This document shows positions 9,267 to 21,514 of a stretch of DNA of 64,000 bases, in pieces. A program made the position numbers and the translations under genes. The notes under the pieces are model-generated. The model worked only from the letters and a program-made list of their open reading frames with translations. It ran no database searches and had not been told where the DNA came from. The stretch's first letter is position 1, and the number at the start of each line of letters is the position of its first letter. Origin of the DNA: Chloropicon primus (Eukaryota); NCBI GenBank assembly GCA_023205875.1, contig CP060762.1, positions 620,001 through 684,000 on the forward strand, in the 5' to 3' direction.

Positions 9267-12200
9267 ATGGAAGTGGCCAAGACGTACATAGTGGTGGCGA
9301 AGAGGCCGTTCTCGCCGACGGTGCACCTCGGTGCGGACGGGACGACGGAGGAATCTGGCGGGCCAGGGACAAGCAGCATGGAGACTGGCAAGGGCCCCCC
9401 CTCTTCGTACATCAAGGTCCCGGTGACCCTGAAGGACAAGCTTCCCGGGAGCGAGCAACAGCACTTCAAGGTGCAGAAGAAGGTCGTGTCCCTCGAGAGG
9501 AAGAAGAAGGAGAAGCCCAAGGCCACTGGAGCGAAGCCCCAGCAGGTGAGTTACAGCGTGGACAAGGACAAGCTGGAGCAGCAAAGGAGGGAGAAGGAGA
9601 GGCTCAAGCTGATCAGGGACAGGAAGAGGGAGGAGGAGAAGGCGGTCAGGAAGGCGCAGGCGAGGGTGGTGAAAGCGGCCGTCGCGGAGCACGGGGTCCA
9701 GACGGACTCCACCATGGCAAGGCAGAGGAGGAAAGCCCCTGCGGCGACGACGAGGGTCGCCGCGTCTGGGGCGAGGGGCGGGGAGGGAAGCGAGCAGCAG
9801 CCCAGAGCGTCGACCTCGAAAGCCCAATCGCACCACGTTCCATTCCCCATCTCCTCGGAGAAGAGGAAGCAGCAGCCCCCGGGCGGCAACAAGGACCAGC
9901 TCAGGCTGAGCAAGGGTGGTATTACCGTGTTCAAGGCAAGGCCGCAGAGGCCCCAGCCTTTCTTCAAGAAGGCGGCTCACAGCTTGCAGAACGCCAAGGC
10001 CTCGTCGAGCGACCAGGCGGGGAAGTCCTCTCCCATCACGTTTCTGTCTCCCTTGGCCCCGAAGAGGATGCCCATCGCACCAAAGCTGGCGCTGCAAGAG
10101 ATCGCCAAGGAGAAGGAGCTGGAGGAGAAGAAGGCGTCGGACGAGCAGAAGAGGAAGGACGCCGTCGCTGTCTTGCTCCGCAGGGTCAAGGAGGACATCC
10201 AGAAGCACCACATGAAGCGCCGGCATGAGCTGGAGACCAAGTGCCAAGAGAGCACCGAGAAGTTCGCTTCCGTATCCGCCCTGCTTCACAGCGGGAAGAG
10301 GAAGTCGAGAGCGCCGCTGACTCCTGCGAACCTCAACAAGCAGCCCCAAGACGACGCGAGGAAGAAGAAGGCAAAGGCAGCGGCGGCGGCAAGCAAGGCC
10401 TCGTCGAAGGGGGGGGAGAACCTCAGGAACCTCAAGAAGAAGACTTTGGAGGAGATCTTGAACGACGGCCCTGCAGAGGATGACCCGGCGGCGGTGAAGA
10501 GCAAGGGTGGACGGGACTATCCCAAACCCTGGCAGACCCACATGAAGAAGCAGCCGGCCAAGGAGAGTGGAGAGGGGGGCGAGGCTCTTGCAAGCGCCGG
10601 GGGGGCTACCGCTGCCGCCTCGAGCTCGGGTGGTGCGAAGCCTGCGTCCACTTCGTCGGTCCTCGGTGAGCTGTACGACATCTTGGACGAACCCGACGAC
10701 GCAGCGGAGGGCGGCGAGGTGGACAAGAAGAAGGAAGAGATTCTGAGGTTCATGAAGAAGAAGAGGGTCGAGTACAGCAAGAACCTCAAGGAGCAGAGCG
10801 ACAAGGAAGAGGAGCGCAGGCATCTGATGAGAAATGTGCACAGGGAATACGGAGAACACAGCAAGCTTCTGGCCAAAGACATGGTGACGCACCACAGGGA
10901 CGTCATCGCCAAAGCTGAGAAGAAGCTGAAGGAGAGGCCGGGGTGGGTCTACGACTTTGCGGGCGTGCCTTACGAGGACTGCTCCAACAGCGACGAGGAC
11001 GGCAAGGGCGACGATGCGGATGCAGGAGGCGAGGTGGATGCGGGCAAGCGGGAACCGGCGGGGGGAGCCAAGGGGGAGAGGAAAGGCGCCCAAGCGAAGG
11101 CCCCGAAGCCAAGGCAAGTGAAGCTGGTGAAGATTCCGAAGAAAATGCGCAAGGCAACAGAACCCGGGGAAAAGGAGGTTTCCATCAAATCCGCTGTGAA
11201 GGCACTGGCCACCCCGCCAAAGCCTCTGAAGAAACCGGAGAAGAAGAAAGCTGAGGAGCGGCGTGAGGAGGCGATGGAGGAGCCTGAGGCGACGACCAAG
11301 AAAAAGAAAGCGAAGAAGGCCAAGCCCTCGACCTCGAAGCCGAAGAAGGCCAAGGGGGGCACCACCACCACCAAGGGGAAGAAGCTGTCCAAAATGCAGA
11401 AGGAGATCAACGAGCTCAAGGGCATTGCGACGCTTGGGGAATCGGCCATGCTCGCAAAGTTGAACGAGGTCGCCCAGCGGCTGCATTCCAAGCTCGTGGC
11501 TCTGGAGGAGGGCGGCCCCACCCCGGAGGACCACCTGATCAGGGAAGACTTGGAGACCCTGCAGCTTGACCTTGGCGTGGCCGCACAGGGATTTCAGAAC
11601 GATGAGTTCTCCTTCTCTCCCGTGAGATCGCCCTCAGCAGCCCTGCAGGGGTCTCCCGCGGCGAGATCTCCGGTGAGATCTCCCCAAAGGTCTCCCGGGG
11701 GGGGTGCCACTGCTGAGGAGGCCATGAGGGCCACGGAGGCGCTGCACGACCAGTTGGTTGTTGCGTACAACTCCGACGGAAGCGTATCGGCCGTGTCGTC
11801 CCCAGGCAAGCATTTTGCGGATGAAGCCGAGGAGGCCATGAAAGCGACAGAAGCCCTTCACGAGCAGCTTGTGATGAAGCAGTACGATTCTGAGGACGAC
11901 AGCTACCAGAGCCCACGCAGCAGCCGGATCATGGGAAGCGATTTCGACCTGAGGTCCCCCCCTTCCGTGCGCACCTTGTCCCCTTCCGGATCCATCGACG
12001 AGAGCATCCTGGCGGGGACGCTCTCGCCCAAGGAGAAGGAGGAAGCCGACCTGGTCACAAACGTTGTCTCTCTGTTGGTCCCTTCGGATCTTGAGGTCAG
12101 ATCCCCAACGCTACTGTCCCCAAAGTCCAGCAACGCCAGCTCGGTGAAGAGGACTCCAAAGGCCAGGACGCCGAAGTCCAGGTCCCCAAAGTCTGCAAGG

Positions 12201-14570
12201 AAGATTGAGTTCGATGCCACGACGTCCGGTGCGAAAAAAAAAAGCCCCTTTCCAGACAGATCCACCTCACCTGCAGCGGCAGCAGCACGAGAAGAAGAAA
12301 GGAGCAGCCCATTTGATCTCGACCAGACAAGGAAGCGGGTGACGTTCGAGGGAAATTCTGCTGCTGCTGATGGTGGTGATGATGATGTGGACGTCTTGCC
12401 GACGGCGGGCGACCAGTACAGCATCATTGATGCCTACGCCAAGAAGAACATGAGCGCCGACGTCCACGAGGGGGAGAAACCTGGTGGTGGTGCAGAGCAG
12501 GAGGGGGGGGAGAAGGAGCAGCCCCAAGTAAGTGATGCGAGCGGCCTGTCCACCGATGCGATCTCCGTCTCCCTGAGCGAATCTCAGACCCAGACCGAGG
12601 TGGCGGTGGTGGAAGAGGCGGTGGAGCCGGCAGATCCGATCGCGGAGGAGAAGCACCCTGTTGAGGAGGAGGAGGAGAAGCACTTTGAGGACTCGTCCTC
12701 CCAGACTCCTCCTCGCTCTCCTGCTCCGCCGTGGGAGGAGAAGAAGGAGAAGAAGAAGAAGAAGAAGAGCCCAGCCAAGGAGCAGCAGCATCCCAAGGCG
12801 GTGAAGATCCCGACCTCTGCCACCGCGCTTGCCGGCCAGCTCAAGGCGGAGCTTGCCAGGTTCACGAGCCTGAGCGACATGACAGACCACCTGAACAAGC
12901 TTGAGCAGAAGATCGAGGTCGTCCAACTCCTCAAGGAGAGCGGTCAGGCCGACGACGCCACCAAGCAGGTCAAGGAGCTCATGAACAGCATTTACGAGCA
13001 GCAGAAGGACTTGACGGAGGAGATGAAGAACGCGATCCTGACCCAGAGCAACGCCTTTGTCGACAAGCTCAGGGACACGGCTGCGGTGCAGAGCAACTTT
13101 TACACGGAGACCCTCAAGTACACCGCCAAGGAGATGGCCCAGATAATGTCCAAGGAGAGCTCAAAGTCCCTGGAGTCCATCTGCTCCTCGTTCGAGGACA
13201 AGTTGAACGAGTACACGTCCATCCAGAGGCAGATGAAGGAGTCCTTGGAGACGGCCACCAAGGAGGTGGTGGTTCTCAGCAGGCAGCAGAGCCCGGTGAG
13301 GGCCCGGGGGTCCGAAGGAGGCGAGCGCTCGATGAGGAGCCCCCTCCAGGACGATCCCTCGATCGTCAGCATCGTTCCGGAGTACACCCAGGACTTTGAG
13401 AGCGAGGGGGTGATCGGGGACAACAACAGCTACCACCACCAGCAGCAGCAGGTGGTGGTGGTGGACAGCGGCGGTGGTCGCGGCGGGACCGACTCGGAGG
13501 CCATCTCTGAGGTGGAGGAGCAGATAGGAGGAGGAGGAGACGGGGAGGGGGGGGAGGAGGGCGTGATTAAGGAGGAGGACGTGATCGAGGAGGAGGACGT
13601 GATCGAGGAGGAGTCTGTGGTGGCCACCCAGGTGGACACGGAGATCGAGGAGGAGGACGAGGAGACGATGCTGTCCGAGACTGCCGTGGGTTCGGTGACG
13701 GAGGAGGTGGTGGAGATCGAGGAGGAGGACGAGGAGGAGGAGGCGGGGGATCCCGCGGCTGCAGAGTCCTTCAAGTCCAGCAGCGGCCTGGTGGTCTCCC
13801 TCGAGCTCCCTCCTGCCGAGGAGGAGGTGGGGGGGGAGGAGATGGACGTGGAGGAGGACGTGGAGGAGGACATCCAGACCTTCATCTTTGCCGATGGGGA
13901 CGACGACGAAGAAGAAGAAGTTGACGAGGAGGTGGAGGTGGAGGTGGAGCAGCAGCAAGCCGTGGAGGAGGAGGAGGAGGAGGTGGAGGAGGACGTGGTG
14001 GTGGATCCCGCCGCCCCGATGAGCGCCGAGGACGCCGCCCTGCTGGAGCACCAGAAGCTCGTCAACATCAACGATTTGGGGTACAGCACGCGGTACGTGG
14101 ACAGGGTCCTGGAGCAGCTCGACCTCAGGGACGTCCTGAGGTCCCTGGAGGAGGAGACCGACCCGATCCCGACGGAGCACTTTTTCAAGATCGAGGAGGA
14201 GGCCACCCTGCTGAGCGACCCGGAGTACATCTACCACAAGCTCCTGTTCGACGCGATGAACGAGGTGCTGCTGAACAAGCTCAACCGCGATCGGGAACCT
14301 CTCGAGGTTTCCGAGGATGCCGCGAGGAGGACCCGGGAGGAGGTCAGGGACGAGGTGCTGGCCAAGGTCAAGTTCGGCCTGAGCAACCTGGACGCCGGCC
14401 AGGAGCTGCCCAAGATCCACGCCCTCGAGACCGAGGACGAGGTCAAGGTCTTCGCGGAGTTCCACAAGTTCTTCGAGGACACCAGGAACGACCTCGTGGA
14501 CGGGGTCGTGGACTGGGTCGTGGAGGACACCATCCGAGTCCTCGATGATCGAGAAGTAGTAGTAGTCTGA
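9267..14570 (+). CDS. Large low-complexity coiled-coil protein with CEP350/CAP350-TRM-like C-terminus (DUF4378)
   Basis: 1767-aa intronless ORF with host-like codon usage. C-terminal YHKLLFDAMNEVL and DLVDGVVDWVVEDTIRVL resemble the M3/M2 motifs of CAP350 and plant TRM proteins. Confidence 0.65.
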   Translation: MEVAKTYIVVAKRPFSPTVHLGADGTTEESGGPGTSSMETGKGPPSSYIKVPVTLKDKLPGSEQQHFKVQKKVVSLERKKKEKPKATGAKPQQVSYSVDKDKLEQQRREKERLKLIRDRKREEEKAVRKAQARVVKAAVAEHGVQTDSTMARQRRKAPAATTRVAASGARGGEGSEQQPRASTSKAQSHHVPFPISSEKRKQQPPGGNKDQLRLSKGGITVFKARPQRPQPFFKKAAHSLQNAKASSSDQAGKSSPITFLSPLAPKRMPIAPKLALQEIAKEKELEEKKASDEQKRKDAVAVLLRRVKEDIQKHHMKRRHELETKCQESTEKFASVSALLHSGKRKSRAPLTPANLNKQPQDDARKKKAKAAAAASKASSKGGENLRNLKKKTLEEILNDGPAEDDPAAVKSKGGRDYPKPWQTHMKKQPAKESGEGGEALASAGGATAAASSSGGAKPASTSSVLGELYDILDEPDDAAEGGEVDKKKEEILRFMKKKRVEYSKNLKEQSDKEEERRHLMRNVHREYGEHSKLLAKDMVTHHRDVIAKAEKKLKERPGWVYDFAGVPYEDCSNSDEDGKGDDADAGGEVDAGKREPAGGAKGERKGAQAKAPKPRQVKLVKIPKKMRKATEPGEKEVSIKSAVKALATPPKPLKKPEKKKAEERREEAMEEPEATTKKKKAKKAKPSTSKPKKAKGGTTTTKGKKLSKMQKEINELKGIATLGESAMLAKLNEVAQRLHSKLVALEEGGPTPEDHLIREDLETLQLDLGVAAQGFQNDEFSFSPVRSPSAALQGSPAARSPVRSPQRSPGGGATAEEAMRATEALHDQLVVAYNSDGSVSAVSSPGKHFADEAEEAMKATEALHEQLVMKQYDSEDDSYQSPRSSRIMGSDFDLRSPPSVRTLSPSGSIDESILAGTLSPKEKEEADLVTNVVSLLVPSDLEVRSPTLLSPKSSNASSVKRTPKARTPKSRSPKSARKIEFDATTSGAKKKSPFPDRSTSPAAAAAREEERSSPFDLDQTRKRVTFEGNSAAADGGDDDVDVLPTAGDQYSIIDAYAKKNMSADVHEGEKPGGGAEQEGGEKEQPQVSDASGLSTDAISVSLSESQTQTEVAVVEEAVEPADPIAEEKHPVEEEEEKHFEDSSSQTPPRSPAPPWEEKKEKKKKKKSPAKEQQHPKAVKIPTSATALAGQLKAELARFTSLSDMTDHLNKLEQKIEVVQLLKESGQADDATKQVKELMNSIYEQQKDLTEEMKNAILTQSNAFVDKLRDTAAVQSNFYTETLKYTAKEMAQIMSKESSKSLESICSSFEDKLNEYTSIQRQMKESLETATKEVVVLSRQQSPVRARGSEGGERSMRSPLQDDPSIVSIVPEYTQDFESEGVIGDNNSYHHQQQQVVVVDSGGGRGGTDSEAISEVEEQIGGGGDGEGGEEGVIKEEDVIEEEDVIEEESVVATQVDTEIEEEDEETMLSETAVGSVTEEVVEIEEEDEEEEAGDPAAAESFKSSSGLVVSLELPPAEEEVGGEEMDVEEDVEEDIQTFIFADGDDDEEEEVDEEVEVEVEQQQAVEEEEEEVEEDVVVDPAAPMSAEDAALLEHQKLVNINDLGYSTRYVDRVLEQLDLRDVLRSLEEETDPIPTEHFFKIEEEATLLSDPEYIYHKLLFDAMNEVLLNKLNRDREPLEVSEDAARRTREEVRDEVLAKVKFGLSNLDAGQELPKIHALETEDEVKVFAEFHKFFEDTRNDLVDGVVDWVVEDTIRVLDDREVVVV

Positions 14571-14794
14571 TGGGATCATAGAATGAATCACAGGGCCCAC
14601 GACGTAGGTGTTTCTCTCGTAGGTGTCTTTTATTATTGTGATCACTTTGTAACTGTTGTGTATTGTATAGTATTTTTGTGTGAAAGAGCACGAGAAGACG
14701 CTTCCTTCTCTCTTTTCCTCCGCTTCTCTCTTTTCCTCCGCCGCGCGCTCCCGTCCTCGTTCGTTTCTCTCGTTCTCGTCCCACGAGACAGAGA

Positions 14795-14818
14795 CCGTTA
14801 GGATGTTTTCAGCGGAAG
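14795..14818 (+). repeat. Left boundary repeat CCGTTAGGATG-TT-TTCAGCGGAAG
   Basis: Imperfect direct repeat of 16386-16414; its core is the reverse complement of CATCCTAA at 16457 and 19905. Confidence 0.7.
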
Positions 14819-14881
14819 TTCTAGAAATCCGACAGAGCAAGAAACAAAGGGGGGGGGTCGCTTCAAGAGGGAGAGGATTGG

Positions 14882-16375
14882 ATGAAGCCACTGTCGAGGC
14901 CATCTCTGAATGCTTCCGGAAGGCTTGCGGTCGTCAGGGGGAGAAGTTCTCCTTCGATGGAGAACCTCGCCCCCAAAATTGTCACGGCCGCGGAGGATGA
15001 CTCTCCCTTTTATCGCTGTCCATGTAAGAAGGCTTGTGCTAAACAATGTCTTTGCCGATGTGTTTGCTCGTACTGCAAAAACATTCGTCCATGTCTCCTG
15101 GGGTCGTCAGAGGCAATGCAAGACAATCCCTTTCATGCCACGGCTTGCGATTGTCAGCTGTGCAACAACGAGGGGAAGAGTCCTGTGTGCGGGAAGAGGA
15201 AGGCGAGCAGCGACCCCACCGTGGATTCTCTTGTCAACTCGTGGAAAGATTGGAACCCTCTCTTCGGAAAATGGAAGAACCGGCGTCGAAGATGCCACCC
15301 GTCCAAGGAAGGACGAGAACTTCCTCGGGGAGTGTCCAAGCATGGTGCTGAAAGGTACCATGCGACGATTAAAGGACTATTGGTTCCGAACAAAGTATCG
15401 TCATTGGGAACCTTCGACACCAAGGAAGCAGCCGCGGCGCGATACGACCTCGCTGCTACCTTGTCTCACGGGAGAGCAGCGATGCTGAATGGCGAAGTGG
15501 ACGAGAACCTCCTTGCCAAGTTTGGAAAGAAGACGCCCGAGGAACGATATGAAATGGCGATTGATCTCGTATCAGGTTGTCAGGGGGAAGCATTCCGCGA
15601 ATATCTCGACCAGGAGGAACAAAAGAGTCCTGTGTGCGGGAAGAGGAAGGCGAGCAGCGACCTCACCGTGGATTCTCTTGTCAACTCGTGGAAAGATTGG
15701 AACCCTCTCTTCGGAAAACTGAAGGACCAGCGTCCCAGTTGTAACCTGCCCAAGGAAGGACGAGAACTTCCTCGGGGAGTGGATAAGATGGATAAGCATG
15801 TGGAAAAGCATGATGAAAAGTACGATGTGAGGATTAGAGGACTATTGTTTCCGAACGTTATATCGACTTTGGGACGTGGGGTGGAGACCAAGGAAGCAGC
15901 CGCGGCGCGATACGACCTCGCCGCTACGTTGTATTACGGGAGAGCCGCAGAACTCAATGGCAAAAGAGACGACAAAATTCTTGACAAAATGCTGAGAGAC
16001 TTCGCTGCTATGTTGTTTCCCGGGAAAGCCGCGAAACCCAATGGCAAAAGGGACGGGAAACTACTTGACAAAGTACTTGACGACCTCGCTGCTGCATTGC
16101 CTCACGGGAGAGCCACGAAACCCAATGGCAAAAGGAACGGGAAACTACTTGACAAGCTGCTTGACGAGTTTGGAAAGAGGACGCCCGAGGAACGATTTGA
16201 AATGGCTGTTAAGCAAGTACGAGGTAAGAAGTGGAAAGGATTTCACCGCCAATTACTCGACCGGAAGAAGAAACAAAAGATACAGAGAGAAGAAACAGAG
16301 AGAAGAGAGGAGGAGGAGGGGGAATCAGAAGCGAAGGTCGACGACAGGTTCGTCGTGAGACATTGTCTTGGTTAA
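14882..16375 (+). CDS. Cys-rich N-terminus + two AP2/ERF-like DNA-binding domains (internal duplication)
   Basis: LPRGVSKHGAERYHATI...LGTFDTKEAAAARYDLAA...GRAAMLN is an AP2 consensus. A second copy lies 447 nt downstream (15176 vs 15623), followed by three NGKR.GK.LDK subrepeats. Confidence 0.85.
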   Translation: MKPLSRPSLNASGRLAVVRGRSSPSMENLAPKIVTAAEDDSPFYRCPCKKACAKQCLCRCVCSYCKNIRPCLLGSSEAMQDNPFHATACDCQLCNNEGKSPVCGKRKASSDPTVDSLVNSWKDWNPLFGKWKNRRRRCHPSKEGRELPRGVSKHGAERYHATIKGLLVPNKVSSLGTFDTKEAAAARYDLAATLSHGRAAMLNGEVDENLLAKFGKKTPEERYEMAIDLVSGCQGEAFREYLDQEEQKSPVCGKRKASSDLTVDSLVNSWKDWNPLFGKLKDQRPSCNLPKEGRELPRGVDKMDKHVEKHDEKYDVRIRGLLFPNVISTLGRGVETKEAAAARYDLAATLYYGRAAELNGKRDDKILDKMLRDFAAMLFPGKAAKPNGKRDGKLLDKVLDDLAAALPHGRATKPNGKRNGKLLDKLLDEFGKRTPEERFEMAVKQVRGKKWKGFHRQLLDRKKKQKIQREETERREEEEGESEAKVDDRFVVRHCLG

Positions 16376-16385
16376 AACATTCCAC

Positions 16386-16414
16386 CCGTTAGGATGATTC
16401 AGATTCAGCGGAAG
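16386..16414 (+). repeat. Second copy of boundary repeat CCGTTAGGATG-ATTCAGA-TTCAGCGGAAG
   Basis: Lies immediately after the AP2 gene stop; matches 14795-14818 with a short internal duplication. Confidence 0.7.
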
Positions 16415-16457
16415 GGAGAAGGAGAAACCAGAAGAGAAGGAGAGAGCAGAGAGGGTC

Positions 16458-16493
16458 ATCCTAAGGTCGCGGGTTCGATCCCCGCCGAAGGCA
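16458..16493 (+). tRNA. Orphan tRNA 3' half (positions 38-73), identity undetermined
   Basis: A-TCCTA-AGGTC-GCGGG-TTCGATC-CCCGC-CGAAGGC-A: exactly 36 nt with a perfect T-arm and acceptor 3' strand. No matching 5' half (GCCTTCG...TAGGA) seen nearby. Confidence 0.75.
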
Positions 16494-16673
16494 CATCTCG
16501 GCAGCAACGAACACAAGTTGCTCTCCAACCATGGTTCAAAATGACACGGGAAACTCCGACCCGTGATACACTTCCGACCTCTAGTACGGGGATCACATCC
16601 GGTGTCGAAACAACACCGCGGCGAAACAACAGCCGCCTTACCTCTTGCTCCGTGAGACAAGGGTTCTGTGAGA

Positions 16674-16797
16674 GACGTTAGTTATACAAGGATCACAACG
16701 AGATCGTAACGGCGGAGGACGGCGAGGACGACGACGGCGACTGACGTTAGTTATACAAGGATCACAACGAGATCGTAACGGCGGAGGACGGCGAGGA
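16674..16797. repeat. 55-bp exact direct repeat, 69-bp period
   Basis: GACGTTAGTTATACAAGGATCACAACGAGATCGTAACGGCGGAGGACGGCGAGGA at 16674 and 16743. Confidence 0.9.
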
Positions 16798-16921
16798 GGA
16801 CGGCGAGGAGGTGTGTGACCTGGCGGGAGCTGGAGAGAGAAAGAGAGCCGCCGTAACGCCAGAGCCGCGAACGAGGCGGCCGACGAGTGGGGACGAGAAG
16901 ACCACGACCAGAGAGAAAGCG

Positions 16922-18190
16922 ATGAGTTACCTCCTGGAATACTTCGGCCGCTGGTTGCCGACGAAGAAGAGGAGACTGACGAATACTGGGACGTCATGTG
17001 AAGAAGGGGCTGGTGGCGCCACCCCGGCCGCGGTTCTCCAGGTGGGTGGCGCCCAAGGATGGCGGGTGGCGCCCAAGGATTGTGGTGCCAATGTCTCTGT
17101 CTTCACCCACTTGCAGGGCAGCGGGCAGCCGTGCGGCGCGGTGGCACTCGGAACAAGCCTGGACACCAACGCTTGCACAGTGGCCCTGGCGATCTCCGCG
17201 GGACCTCATAGGGAGCGGGAGATGGCCGCCATCGAGGAAAACGTGGATCCGACGACGCTTCTCAATGCGGATGGACTTCTTGCCTCTCTTCGCTTCGCAG
17301 ACGACGAATCAGCTGGCGCGCGGCCCACCCTTGCACGCGAGGGTACACGGGCGGAGCGAACTCGCGAGCCTGAGGAGCTGACCCTGGTCCGCGTGGTCCG
17401 AGGCCGTGGCGGAGTCCACCTGGAGCGCGTTGAGGGCTTGAAAGAACTGACCCACTGCATCGTCTTCCTCCGCGAGTCCCTTGCGCAGGAGGGGCTTGGG
17501 AACAAGCTCGCTGGTCAGGCGGCCACGATCTCAAGCGCGTTGCTCGGCAAAGATCTTCCTAAACAGGTGAAAGCATTTCGTTTCGTGGAGCTTGGGACCG
17601 CCAGCCGCTCGCGATGCCTCAAGGACCGCAAAGTTCTTACGAAAGCTCTTGCCCTTGCGAAGGAGAAGGGCGAGCCTTGCGCGCTTCTTGTAGCTGCCTT
17701 GTCGCGATTGTCGAGACGGTCACAAGCTGACGAGGACCTCGACTACCTTGCTGAGCGCGCAGGGCAGGCCTCTATACTGGCGTGTATCCCGACGTCCCAT
17801 GCAGCAGCTTTGATTGGGGAGGAAAAGAAAGAGGAGCTCAAAAAGTACATGAGCAAGGCTGCAAGCACCTCGGACGGGCAAGCCGTGTACTCGGCGTCGC
17901 ACTGCATGCTCAAGTCCGGCGCCACCCGTTGTTCTGTAGCATCGGGCCAACACACTTCTGAGGAACTTTGTCTCCTCGTCGAACACGTCGAGCACGTCCT
18001 GAGGCACAAGCTGGAGAATCTGGAGAAGCCGGGGGAGCAGAAGCACGGGAAACCCCTTCTCCTCGTAGGTATTGCCCGTACGTCGCCTGGAACTGACGTC
18101 GCCAAGTCTACTTCGATATATGTCCAACGGTGCCTACTCCTCCACGTCCTCTCAAGGTGCGCGACAACCTTCAGAAGGATGTTGCGCTAA
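16922..18190 (+). CDS. Serine recombinase (resolvase-like) protein, 5' part: complete catalytic domain 1 and start of domain 2
   Basis: CIVFLRES (17471-17479)...LAGQ...FVELGTAS...DRKVL...LLVAALSRLSR (17699-17716) follows the YxRxS...Q...E.G.S...R..L...LDRLSR pattern. A second VGIARTS...SIYVQR occurs near the end. First ATG is at 16922 (frame open from 16811). Confidence 0.75.
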   Translation: MSYLLEYFGRWLPTKKRRLTNTGTSCEEGAGGATPAAVLQVGGAQGWRVAPKDCGANVSVFTHLQGSGQPCGAVALGTSLDTNACTVALAISAGPHREREMAAIEENVDPTTLLNADGLLASLRFADDESAGARPTLAREGTRAERTREPEELTLVRVVRGRGGVHLERVEGLKELTHCIVFLRESLAQEGLGNKLAGQAATISSALLGKDLPKQVKAFRFVELGTASRSRCLKDRKVLTKALALAKEKGEPCALLVAALSRLSRRSQADEDLDYLAERAGQASILACIPTSHAAALIGEEKKEELKKYMSKAASTSDGQAVYSASHCMLKSGATRCSVASGQHTSEELCLLVEHVEHVLRHKLENLEKPGEQKHGKPLLLVGIARTSPGTDVAKSTSIYVQRCLLLHVLSRCATTFRRMLR

Positions 18191-19773
18191 GCGGGAAGCT
18201 GCCGGTGATTGAAATCACAATTGGGACCTTTGCAGAGAAGTGTGGAGGCTCGACCTCGGAGGAGGCTGCCGTCCAAGAATGGGTGAAGAAGGTCTGCGAC
18301 GAGGGCAAATACGCAGGGGGCGTTCTACTCTGCACCCGTGCAGATCGGCTTACAAGGGAGCTTGCGACGCTCGGGACGCTCTTGGAAAGGTGCTGTAAGG
18401 CGAACATAGCAACGGTTGCGTGCTTGACAGAAGTGGATGCCGTCGTCACCGAGGAGAGACACGTTCAAGAGGCCGTAGCCCAGGTTCTCGCTGGAGATGA
18501 GGAGTATCTTCTTGGAAAGCGCTTTGTGGAGCAACGGGCGAGTGATCTCGTCCGCGCATGGAAGAACCAACCCACAGTTCGTGTGCTCGTCGCTGCTTGT
18601 TCCATCACGGAAGCGAACTACGACATCATTCTTCGCGAGGAGCACATGGAGTTCCTGGAGACCTACAGGCAATACTGCCACGTTCACTCCGTGAGGGACG
18701 AGTTGTTTGAAAACCGTGATGGACACGGCTTGGATGAAGACGCATTGAGCAGAGTCTTTGAGTACTTTGCGGATGCACTAAAGGGAGAACATGTCGATGT
18801 CGTGTTTGAGAATGAATGTTTCCCAGAAACCGCGATCTCTGTGACTCAAAAAGATTTCTTCGAATGCTCCTGCGCTGATAAATGCTCTCGCAAGTCGTCC
18901 AGGACAACAGGCACCGCGAACACCGCTCCAGCACATACTCGATGCATTTGTGGTTGTGACATGTGCAAGAGGAAGCGTCCTTGCATTCTGGTGGACAGCG
19001 ACGCCGAGGACGGCGGGGAGAGGGAGAGAGAGCTTCGGAAATTTGATGCCGCTGCATGTCCCTGTGAACGTTGCAGCAGCAGCCCCTTGAGCACTGGTAC
19101 GACAAGGAAGACACAGGCCAAGACCAACACGAAAGGGAAGAGGAAGGCCAAAGCAAGGAAGCCGATGAAGGAGTTTCCTCGACTTCCTACTACAGACGGT
19201 ACTCAAACCCTGCGCTGCATCTGCTGTGATGCTTTTCGTCGCCCTGAGTGCCCCTTGGTCAAAACAGGAGCTCTGACCCCGGTTCCTGGGGAGGAACGTG
19301 ATCGAGGTGGGCACAATCCCACTTGCCTCCTCTCGAACTGGTGCTGGTACTGCCACCGCTTCATCTTCAAAAGTGAGTTTAACCACTGGTGCTCGTTCGG
19401 ATGCTTCTTGAAAGCCACGAAGTTCGTGGACAAGAAGGAGCTTTGGGACATGAGCAAGGAAATTGGCATGACACAACTGAAGAACACGATTGGCTTCTGG
19501 TTTTGTGTTCCGTGTACAAAGAAACCTGAGTCCGAGAAAGCCTTGATCGAGAAGATCCCCTCGATCCCCTTGATCCCAACCAACGGTTCAAGGGGCTTGA
19601 GGTGCTTGTCCTGCAGTCATAACGATTGCAAAATCGGCAAGGGGTACAAGGAGAACGCAGAAGGAGGCGGCGTGAACGTTGGCTCCGGCCGGCAGAAGTC
19701 CGAGAACAGAAAGGCCAAAGAGGTAGTGACCCCGCATCCAATGCTCGTCAACATGATGCTACAGGACTCCTAA
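18130..19773 (+). CDS. Serine recombinase protein, 3' part (-1 frame): rest of catalytic domain 2, Cys-rich domain and zinc-finger-like clusters
   Basis: TFAEKCGGS...VLLCTRADRLTRELATL...LERCCKANIATVAC completes a resolvase domain. Followed by a CxCxxxC...CxCxCxxC...RPC...CxCxxC domain and several CxxC pairs. Overlaps the upstream ORF; no early ATG. Confidence 0.72.
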   Translation: MPTPPRPLKVRDNLQKDVALSGKLPVIEITIGTFAEKCGGSTSEEAAVQEWVKKVCDEGKYAGGVLLCTRADRLTRELATLGTLLERCCKANIATVACLTEVDAVVTEERHVQEAVAQVLAGDEEYLLGKRFVEQRASDLVRAWKNQPTVRVLVAACSITEANYDIILREEHMEFLETYRQYCHVHSVRDELFENRDGHGLDEDALSRVFEYFADALKGEHVDVVFENECFPETAISVTQKDFFECSCADKCSRKSSRTTGTANTAPAHTRCICGCDMCKRKRPCILVDSDAEDGGERERELRKFDAAACPCERCSSSPLSTGTTRKTQAKTNTKGKRKAKARKPMKEFPRLPTTDGTQTLRCICCDAFRRPECPLVKTGALTPVPGEERDRGGHNPTCLLSNWCWYCHRFIFKSEFNHWCSFGCFLKATKFVDKKELWDMSKEIGMTQLKNTIGFWFCVPCTKKPESEKALIEKIPSIPLIPTNGSRGLRCLSCSHNDCKIGKGYKENAEGGGVNVGSGRQKSENRKAKEVVTPHPMLVNMMLQDS

Positions 19774-19912
19774 GCCGATCCTAAAGACTATCCTAATCCT
19801 AATCCCCAAAAAGCAATCCTAAAGCTGAAATATTCTATCCTCCTCCACCACACTATGTATGTCTCCGTTGACCGCCGGCACATCGTTCGTTCGTTCGTTC
19901 GTTCCATCCTAA
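19768..19912. repeat. Cluster of ATCCTAA motifs and right boundary CATCCTAA
   Basis: ATCCTAA at 19778, 19790, 19796 and 19816; CATCCTAA at 19905-19912; (TTCG)n microsatellite just before the latter. Confidence 0.7.
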
Positions 19913-20619
19913 AAACGTCGTTCAGGTGACCTTCCTTCCACGATCATGGAACTTCGCATCAACAAACGAAACTCGGGGAGAGACAAGATTCAGTGAGGGA
20001 CTTGCAGAGTGTCTCCGCTGGACGCATCTCGCAATTCCAGCAGCAGCAGCAGCAGCAAGAAGAGGTGGCACCTGGCATCGATCGATCGATCGAGGAGCCC
20101 AGGTGGAGGGAGAACGAAGACCAACAGGAACAGGAACAGGCTTGTGACTTGTGGGGTGGCGTTGCGAACAACGGACGATCGGGCGGGAAGGGCGGGAGGG
20201 GGAGAGGGGGAGAGGGGGAGAGGGAGAGGGGTCACACCTTCACGCCGGTGGAGAGGCAAGGCGCGACCTTGGCACGCAGCATGTGATAAAGTCTTGCTGA
20301 GCTGGGTGTGGCCTCTCTCTCTCTCGATCTGCTGGGACTACGAAAGACGTTTCTTTTCCAGGGAGGGGAATTATGGGTCCTTCGATTGTACGATAGTCTC
20401 GTTTTTCAGATTAGATTAAGCTCTCGTCCGTCGATATTCCGGGCGTGTGAACAAAGATCCGATTCGCGTGAGGCCGTCGCACCCATCCCTGCACTCCTGC
20501 TGCGATACCATGCCACCAGCCTTGCCATACTCGCAGTTCATGTCCGTGACAAACTCATAGGTGCAAGGTGTGCGGCGGATGCACCGTTCCCCAAGCCAAA
20601 GGTGAAGACGGAGGCTCGA

Positions 20620-21406
20620 GAGCAAGGCATCTCGCTCTGAGGCGTGTTGGATGGATCCTCACCAACGTCTTCTTCTCGAGGTATCGTATGAAGCTCTGCA
20701 CAGCATGGAATCCGATTCTTCCTCGAGTTGGATGCATCAGAAACAGAGGATGGGTGTGATGGTGGGCATGTACACTCACTCAGCATGTTGAATACAGCAA
20801 TATCTATGCTGGTTATGGCCATAAGTCTGAGGCTCATGCGGTTACGTCAGGTTCTTTGGGTGTTTCTGCAGGGCGACTGTCCTTCACATATGGTTTGCAA
20901 GGAGCTTGTGCAGCTGTTGATACGGCTTGTTCATCCTCTCTTGTCGCAGCACACATGTCCTACATGAGCCTTGTTCTTGGCGACGTCTCGAAGGGACTAT
21001 ATACACAATATGCATCGCTTGCGTTCTCGGTCCTCTTGAAGATGGTTCCAAACAAGATACGGTGATGCTACGTGGCACTGCTGTGAACCAAGATGGGCGA
21101 TCCAGTGCTTTGACCGCACCGCACGGACCCTCTCAACAGCAAGTGATGCGTATGAGCTTGCACTCGGCAGACCTTGATGCCTGGAGTGCACAGGTCTTGC
21201 AGATGCACGGTACAGGTACTCCTCTTGGTGGCCCCATTGAGGTCGGTGCGGCATCTGCTGTGTTACTCTCCGAGGCCACCAAACGGGACTTCCCTGTCCA
21301 CATGTCTGGAGTGGAGAGCAATATGGGGCATAGTGAAGCAGCAGCTGGTATGGCTGGTATGGTTCAGCTCGCAGGCAATTTGCTGCGGTCTATGTCCTCC
21401 GTATAA
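20620..21406 (+). pseudogene. Decayed type I polyketide synthase ketosynthase (KS) fragment
   Basis: MDPHQRLLLEVSYEAL (20651), GRLSFTYGLQG...DTACSSSLVAAH, NQDGRSSALTAPHGPSQ, HGTGTPLG.PIE and SNMGHSEAAAG, spread across frames with frameshifts and deletions. Confidence 0.88.
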
Positions 21407-21420: not shown

Positions 21421-21514
21421 TTCGAGTGTAGCTCCTTAACCACTCGGACAACTCAGCAAGGGTTTTTGCTCGCTGAGTGCAGGATTCGAACCTGCGCGGC
21501 TGAAGCCACTACAT
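21421..21514 (-). tRNA. trnS-CGA: Circularly permuted tRNA-Ser(CGA): 3' half 21514-21471, 13-nt spacer, 5' half 21457-21421
   Basis: Minus strand reads A-TGTAG-TGGCTTCAGCCGC-GCAGG-TTCGAAT-CCTGC-ACTCAGC-G, then AGCAAAAACCCTT, then GCTGAGT-TG-TCCGAGTGGTTAAGGAG-CTACA-CT-CGA-A. Acceptor (GCTGAGT/ACTCAGC) and anticodon (CTACA/TGTAG) stems pair; long variable arm. Confidence 0.93.

Follow-up and report, generated by a model that had tools for sequence, protein, structure and literature searches.

What is a gene for a serine recombinase with two catalytic domains doing in the nuclear genome of the tiny marine green alga Chloropicon primus? The question is raised by a 64,000-nucleotide stretch of contig CP060762.1 (assembly GCA_023205875.1, positions 620,001 to 684,000 of the forward strand), which we call the window and to which all coordinates refer. 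An initial annotation, made from the letters alone, had described a 5.1-kb block of this window, holding an AP2 gene and the recombinase gene, as one integrative element bracketed by short att-like repeats. Our analysis points to a different unit. The window contains a frameshifted copy of an about 3.3-kb, tRNA-associated repeat, and we favor, with somewhat better than even confidence, the reading that this repeat is a DNA transposon driven by the tandem serine recombinase. Many near-identical copies, two catalytic motifs per chain, an array of TCCTAA repeats and ragged left ends behind tRNAs are the observations on which this reading is built. The window copy is laid out as follows.

16583..16921, plus strand: left non-coding region with short inverted repeats and a 69-bp tandem repeat (16674-16802)
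16922..19773, plus strand: tandem serine-recombinase gene, broken by a 1-nt deletion near 18150
19768..19920, plus strand: right end with six TCCTAA repeats (19768-19912) and a TCGT microsatellite

A Recombinase with Two Catalytic Domains

In the window copy the recombinase gene is split into two frames near 18150, where one base is missing; the extra base at 18150 is present in all four of the read runs (X1, X4, X5 and X8) whose contigs we compared with the window. The window copy is broken or miscalled at this point, and the reading frame of four intact relatives (902-950 amino acids, aa) continues through the break. An intact copy matches the Pfam family Resolvase (PF00239) in two stretches with 41 bits (E = 2.5e-10; cut-off 23.3). 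This profile comparison, together with catalytic motifs in both stretches, bears out the prediction of two resolvase-type catalytic domains. The first domain contains R184 and S186 (R-x-S), E223, R236 and the sequence S-R-L-S-R at 261-265 (R262 and R265, R-x-x-R). The second contains R386 and S388 (R-x-S), E439 and D-R-L-T-R at 475-479 (D475, R476 and R479, R-x-x-R). We take these residues to be the recombinase catalytic motifs, with an alignment to PinE as the only check; the relatives of PinE were too uniform for a deep alignment.

A PHROG search returned a match to an invertase (E = 1.3e-4), and Resolvase was found in all 10 of the 10 best matches in the ESM Atlas (0.92), where small resolvases form the nearest clusters. 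The one NCBIfam match, to XisF, is weak (E = 0.62), and PDB sequence searches with the recombinase found nothing. Structure models reached a mean predicted local distance difference test (pLDDT) of 33 and 45; their order of strands and helices fits Resolvase, and they are too poor for a test of the fold. Fold searches with these low-pLDDT models gave no significant match, with vWA-type folds ranked first and Bxb1 at rank 33 (E = 0.49).

Residues 1-175 match no Pfam family at E values up to 10, and a helix-turn-helix (HTH) of the MerR type was not found in this N-terminal stretch. The C-terminal tail contains 26 cysteines and has no Pfam or Atlas match. A Pfam scan of the intact copy detected no Recombinase (PF07508), zinc-ribbon or HTH family. 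In the window copy, the main open reading frames (ORFs) match neither TnpB/Fanzor nor reverse transcriptase (RT) nor DDE enzymes, and none of the 16 other frames of the island between 14910 and 20637 has a Pfam match, leaving no further mobility enzyme. Pairwise similarity between the two recombinase domains was not detected. This result rules out a recent duplication, and since the domains are unlike each other, we take their fusion to be old.

A Young, Dispersed Repeat Family

The window gene is one member of a young repeat family dispersed in the C. primus genome. All 11 members of one 90% cluster come from C. primus, as do those of additional clusters, and the genes lie on chromosomes 2, 5, 6, 9, 15 and 17. 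The close relatives are exclusively C. primus genes, labeled as hypothetical or resolvase-domain proteins, and the full-length gene models are mutually 92.1-99.8% identical. An X1 contig within the gene has a depth of 1385 compared to 176 and 133 for unique flanks, which is in line with 8-10 copies, contig depth being a rough guide.

The published gene lists describe the same family from another side. In the accessible part of file S1 of PMC12301720 it forms two C. primus-specific orthogroups of 14 entries each, all but one labeled hypothetical; when entries with adjacent gene numbers are grouped, one strain has about 9 loci and the other 11. Matching by gene number would pair 8 loci between the strains and leave 4 unmatched (02p16300, 03g27050, 14g72430 and 16g76820). 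The last three, which appear in the list of a single strain, are known from gene lists, not from sequence. The same part of that file has no family member among the orthogroups of the sister species, and Supplementary Data 2 of PMC6731263, as far as available, gives no match to the recombinase gene in 13 other green algae. In the latter source the chromosome-9 copy has the same neighbors as in the window, a large hypothetical gene on one side and, on the other, a ketoacyl-synthase piece and then APRT, while the two chromosome-2 copies have others; the neighbors differ at all three loci checked. The locus is neither single-copy nor conserved in relatives, and a Resolvase profile was found, all of which agrees with the mobile element of an undescribed class that the initial annotation had proposed.

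Among the 31 differences listed within the gene, 5 are synonymous and 26 non-synonymous. This excess fits drifting copies of an element better than a selected host family. The four intact copies vary at 1 of 270 columns in the linker and domain 2, at 12 of 155 in domain 1 and at 34 of 321 in the tail; outside the linker and domain 2, 8-15% of the columns are variable. A common internal deletion in X1 (18064-18504, depth 550) removes the start of domain 2 and agrees with the split gene models P0003-P0007. This form is likely a non-autonomous subfamily.

A protein search among 1.84 billion representatives returned 9 matches, three of them distant (32-41% identity). Two of these three, environmental proteins with 32-38% identity, retain domain 1, a conserved motif of the linker and, with R-T-S, the beginning of domain 2. 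The environmental protein P0015 (353 aa, 56% identical, on a 4.4-kb contig) differs N-terminally of domain 1, where its sequence is basic, and appears to represent a second subfamily. Related loci were not found in viral contigs, JGI metagenomes, prokaryote genomes, phages or plasmids by searches with exact short patterns, which do not prove absence.

Ends of the Element and Association with tRNA Genes

The mobile unit likely measures about 3.3 kb and extends from 16583-16690 to at least 19920. As the usual form, we prefer this extent to the proposed 5.1-kb unit with TTAGGATG att sites: other copies begin inside the block, behind tRNA 3' ends. A tRNA 3' half also precedes the element in the window, as the initial annotation had noted.

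16458..16493, plus strand: tRNA 3' half (position 38 to discriminator) with a perfect 5-bp T-stem at 16469

Presumably this half is of the elongator-Met type. It marks the target side of the window copy. ARAGORN called no whole tRNA at this position; a 5' half is absent from the window, and a matching acceptor strand was not found nearby.

Junctions were read from contigs and their loose ends, of which six were listed per run (6 of 34 in one table). The left start of the element is ragged: 16583 in the window, and 16618, 16643 and at most 16686 in other copies. In two X1 contigs, position 16618 directly follows a T-arm and a different acceptor end. A further contig carries a third acceptor end, 5 nt ahead of 16643, and in yet another a T-arm is joined to 16686. 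In X4, X5 and X8 the same tRNA half as in the window, with an 89-nt trailer, ends in a T6 run at 16582, the point at which the window passes into the element. Copies are thus preceded, at a distance of 0-90 nt and in the same orientation, by no fewer than three different tRNA 3' ends. The probability that three of nine copies fall within 100 nt behind a tRNA by chance is p < 1e-6 on generous terms (46 annotated tRNA genes, 17.4 Mb).

At the right end, 6 of the 12 TCCTAA motifs of the window fall within 145 bp (19768-19912). One X5 contig shares the window sequence up to 19920 before it enters another flank. The element extends at least 8 nt beyond CATCCTAA at 19905, which had been proposed as its outer border. 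The TCCTAA array resembles the host telomere repeat TTTAGG, and telomere-like TTTAGG units also occur in a variant left region (16691-16788) in X1 and X5.

A near-fixed site behind tRNAs combined with variable starts, here the four positions given above, resembles 5' truncation. The family could have spread through RNA, with RT provided in trans as for tRNA-targeting retroelements and with the recombinase as cargo or as a finisher of insertion. The retroelements TRE3 and Skipper-2 use the same zone (available text of PMC5006619), and the contigs of X4 and X5, which we guess to be RNA runs, span the gene up to 19920. However, Pfam scans detect no RT in the element, neither in the window nor in X5 does the right end carry a poly(A) tail, and the near-invariant domain 2 of the four intact copies suggests that the recombinase was under selection during the spread. 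We consider RNA-mediated spread unlikely.

The AP2 Gene and the 5.1-kb Block

The remaining parts of the block are the AP2 gene and a set of short repeats.

14795..14818, plus strand: direct repeat, first copy, starting with CCGTTAGGATG
14798, plus strand: TTAGGATG
14882..16375, plus strand: intact AP2 ORF of 497 aa with a Cys-rich N-terminus, two AP2 domains and 84-bp repeats
16386..16414, plus strand: direct repeat, second copy
16389, plus strand: TTAGGATG
16457, minus strand: TTAGGATG, part of the tRNA anticodon stem
19905, minus strand: TTAGGATG

The two AP2 domains originate from an internal 447-bp duplication. A profile of both repeats matches the double-AP2 protein WRI1 (PDB 7wq5, E = 4.8e-12) and ERF096 (E = 0.014). 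The predicted double AP2 (PF00847) is confirmed through WRI1, with Pfam AP2 by itself under the cut-off (E = 0.002). No Pfam family points to an HNH nuclease, and the HNH-endonuclease families of PHROG match the AP2 stretch only. Homologues of this protein were not found among proteins of near or shorter length; longer proteins were not searched.

The claim of non-host codon usage is supported by the GC content at third codon positions (GC3), which is 0.56 in the AP2 ORF and 0.67 and 0.64 in the two recombinase parts compared to 0.79-0.94 in 12 of the 16 comparison ORFs of the window. Three of the other four are antisense shadows of real genes (0.48-0.57), and one was entered out of frame. A proposed hairpin array found no support: this region folds no better than chance (z = -1.58; 14 of 200 shuffles as good), which leaves a structured RNA unsupported. 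An Rfam scan gave no family match.

The idea that inverted 8-mers bracket the block holds in part. TTAGGATG does occur at 14798 and, inverted, at 19905, but it has four copies in the 64 kb, all inside the block, and the outer pair matches over 8 bp only, a score that 118 of 300 shuffles equal. By chance a mean of 0.6 copies is expected, and four copies were reached in 1 of 100 shuffles. The direct repeat of 24-29 nt that brackets the AP2 gene has a local alignment score of 32, matched by none of 300 shuffles. In the readable text of the published table of heterozygous indels neither TTAGGATG nor CATCCTAA was found, and the beginnings of its 10 long cells, compared over up to 400 letters, are all unlike that of the element. 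From the original description we retain the AP2 pair, the tRNA 3' half, the two Resolvase stretches and the GC3 difference, and we do not rely on the 8-mer bracket or the hairpins.

The AP2 gene is a low-copy, variable neighbor that is linked to the family at times and is no constant part of it. X1 contains about three variants of the AP2 gene, with three length variants of a G-run at 14848. Since 16452 follows non-AP2 sequence in X1, X4 and X5 (with an X1 contig unbroken to 16608), the junction between AP2 gene and tRNA is not the usual state. Another X1 contig (depth 182) joins the 5' part of the AP2 gene to the 3' end of the recombinase gene, 15235 to 19755, at a microhomology. This joint is either a deleted allele of the window locus or a second AP2-plus-recombinase composite elsewhere. 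Coverage gaps, namely the absence of X4 and X5 contigs on the AP2 gene and the near absence of X1 contigs on 16390-16451, were not used as evidence.

These data also bear on the possibility that the entire 5.1-kb block is mobile, that the AP2 protein binds TTAGGA motifs and that the shorter copies are derived. This scenario would make use of the TTAGGATG copies that flank the AP2 gene left and right, in inverted orientation relative to the right-end array, and of the non-host codon usage common to both genes; the joint between 15235 and 19755 presupposes a recombinase gene with an AP2 gene upstream of it. On the other hand, the outer 8-bp match is no better than in shuffles, most copies begin behind tRNAs within the block, and the tRNA half is preceded by other sequence in X1, X4 and X5. 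In the accessible part of the published gene list, the recombinase at this locus follows the upstream host gene with no other gene listed in between (09p56700, 09p56710). A mobile 5.1-kb block is quite unlikely.

Phage-like integration inside tRNA genes, bringing or duplicating a tRNA 3' half, with CATCCTAA as the core site, would explain the direct repetition of CATCCTAA at 16457 (in the tRNA) and 19905 and the 3' half that has no 5' half in the window. Yet the sequence past 19912 is not a tRNA 3' half, and other copies follow different acceptor ends, which suggests that these tRNAs are targets rather than one carried piece; we regard this explanation as highly improbable. The same holds for a host gene family (a domesticated recombinase or viral relic, copied by segmental duplication or gene conversion near tRNAs and no longer self-mobile), since the 8 loci that gene numbers make apparently common to both strains, the several truncated or split copies and the fact that movement was not observed are opposed by different neighbors at three of three loci, by the 26 non-synonymous versus 5 synonymous differences listed and by the absence of the family from the sister species' orthogroups and the 13 other green algae.

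Proposed Mechanism

How might a transposon driven by the tandem recombinase move? We infer every step beyond the anatomy described above. The Cys-rich tail would bind the TCCTAA array at the right end, and two chains would provide the four active sites that serine recombinases normally draw from four subunits. This complex would then cut both strands. The freed element, perhaps circular as has been suggested for IS607, would be rejoined between a tRNA 3' end and the terminator, a safe site in a gene-dense genome. If the right end alone were recognized by sequence, this would account for the ragged left ends. The AP2 gene would be a passenger or a neighboring repeat, dispensable for mobility. 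In the IS607 model, as presented in the available text of PMC6188088 and PMC4058570, repeats at one end are bound by TnpA, which captures the opposite end, and a circular form is proposed.

Several observations weigh against a transposon of this kind. Domain 2 lacks an arginine equivalent to R236 (R-P-G-like motif), and domain 1 by itself scores 20.1 bits, which is under the Pfam cut-off. A precise crossover, as is usual for serine recombinases, is at odds with the ragged left ends, and the three readable left junctions share no crossover dinucleotide. The tRNA junctions comprise 21-30 letters per copy, mostly from one run, and the tRNAs there may not be whole genes. In the T6 allele the sequence continues in the middle of a ketosynthase remnant (20927), for which reason this allele may be a deletion instead of the ancestral empty site. 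The loose ends listed did not yield an empty site flanked on both sides, a target duplication, the junction of a circle or an exact end of the element. Finally, the loci that are unmatched between strains may reflect gaps in annotation.

Comparison with Known Systems

By analogy, the C. primus element seems to work most like IS607. In IS607, a TnpB/Fanzor2 ORF beside TnpA is usual but dispensable, the crossover is at GG, an intermediate in circular form is proposed and the target is not duplicated. As in IS607 and Fanzor2 elements (accessible parts of PMC6188088, PMC4058570, PMC3673617 and PMC3627910), a serine-recombinase catalytic domain is the only mobility enzyme, long terminal inverted repeats (TIRs) are absent and short direct repeats, here TCCTAA, are found near one end. 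In contrast to IS607, which has one catalytic domain in a small TnpA and near-random GG targets, the C. primus element has two such domains in a 950-aa chain and apparently targets tRNAs. It also lacks the N-terminal MerR-type HTH and the TnpB/Fanzor ORF, contains a Cys-rich tail and, unlike IS607/Fanzor2, occurs in a nuclear genome in many copies of recent origin.

Large serine recombinases such as phiC31, Bxb1 and TnpX of Tn4451 consist of one catalytic domain followed by Recombinase (PF07508) and a zinc-ribbon. The C. primus protein resembles them in its size and in its long C-terminal part with cysteine clusters, and differs in having two catalytic domains and no match to PF07508 or zinc-ribbon families. 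Elements of this group have an attL/attR pair with a common core and a matching empty attB; in the C. primus block 8-mer repeats are present, but such a pair was not identified among the junctions read. Its catalytic motifs align with PinE, as in resolvases and invertases (Tn3, gamma-delta, Pin), from which it is distinguished by an about five times longer chain (950 vs about 190 aa) and by the lack of a C-terminal HTH and of a partner DDE transposase.

A different group of elements shares the insertion site. Dada DNA transposons use a DDE transposase and insert into tRNA genes or shortly behind them. The same zone in a compact genome is chosen by the dictyostelid elements TRE3 and Skipper-2 (PMC5006619, in part), which use RT and integrase, whereas the C. 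primus element has no RT match. The sources compared, as far as accessible, report no serine recombinase for TRE3, Skipper-2 or Dada. The Fanzor2* elements of C. primus (available text of bioRxiv 10.1101/2023.08.09.552727) are likewise dispersed repeats with a bacterial-type enzyme in the same host. Unlike the recombinase family, they encode only Fanzor, have TIRs and 5-nt target duplications and belong to separate orthogroups.

The eukaryotic serine-recombinase elements described in the accessible parts of PMC3627910 and PMC3673617 are all IS607-like, and the latter survey could not show that such elements transpose in eukaryotes. The words resolvase and recombinase are absent from the main text of both C. 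primus genome papers. Full-text literature searches, read as listings and beginnings of abstracts and covering few subscription papers and not Repbase, brought up no earlier account of this family or of any protein with tandem serine recombinases. Provided that the enzyme moves the element, the family and its protein architecture would belong, on sequence grounds, to none of the known serine-recombinase families, with a chemistry of known type. Tentatively, and at a little short of an even chance, we go one step further and propose a new superfamily of eukaryotic DNA transposons. Its transposase would be a natural dimer of serine recombinases in one chain, with a tail that binds zinc. The superfamily would have no tie to IS607/Fanzor, would home to the RNA polymerase III terminators of tRNA genes and would be present in unrelated marine eukaryotes as well.

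Neighboring Features

The block is flanked on the left by a host gene (9267-14570, 1767 aa) with a C-terminal match to DUF4378 (E = 5e-6), and by a pyrimidine-rich motif (14716-14794) that is repeated at several other loci. Loose ends before 14716 occur in at least four X1, at least four X4 and at least two X5 contigs. The motif weakly resembles the left region of the element (9 of 300 shuffles) and, on the minus strand, follows a tRNA-Ser 3' end in X1, where 14768 is joined to 21471, the last base of the tRNA-Ser 3' half. It is probably a separate or related repeat. To the right, a broken polyketide ketosynthase piece (20431-21400; Pfam E = 1e-11 and 2e-24) is multi-copy, with one X1 contig at a depth of 2137. 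Its left starts are at 20431, 20629, 20927 and 21011 and its right ends near 21386-21400, and it abuts tRNA terminators both in the window and in the X4/X5/X8 allele. This piece is possibly a second tRNA-associated repeat. Next to it, at 21421-21514, lies a circularly permuted tRNA-Ser(CGA).

21514..21471 (3' half), 13-nt linker, 21457..21421 (5' half), then a T10 terminator, minus strand: permuted tRNA-Ser(CGA)

ARAGORN misses this tRNA in place and calls an 81-nt tRNA when the halves are reordered (fold z = -3.96). Permuted tRNAs of type II (37/38) are known in Mamiellales (PMC3978253, in part).

Implications

The family is a real, recently spread element whose enzyme layout is undescribed and whose preference for tRNAs is likely. 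It has spread recently in an algal nucleus with an enzyme layout unlike that of the IS607-derived elements of eukaryotes. Two catalytic domains per chain would allow a direct test of the subunit-rotation model, as there are two options for the linker: it connects subunits that turn as a pair, or its length permits the rotation. If this nuclear recombinase truly lands behind tRNA genes, it would be useful for the insertion of genes at safe sites.

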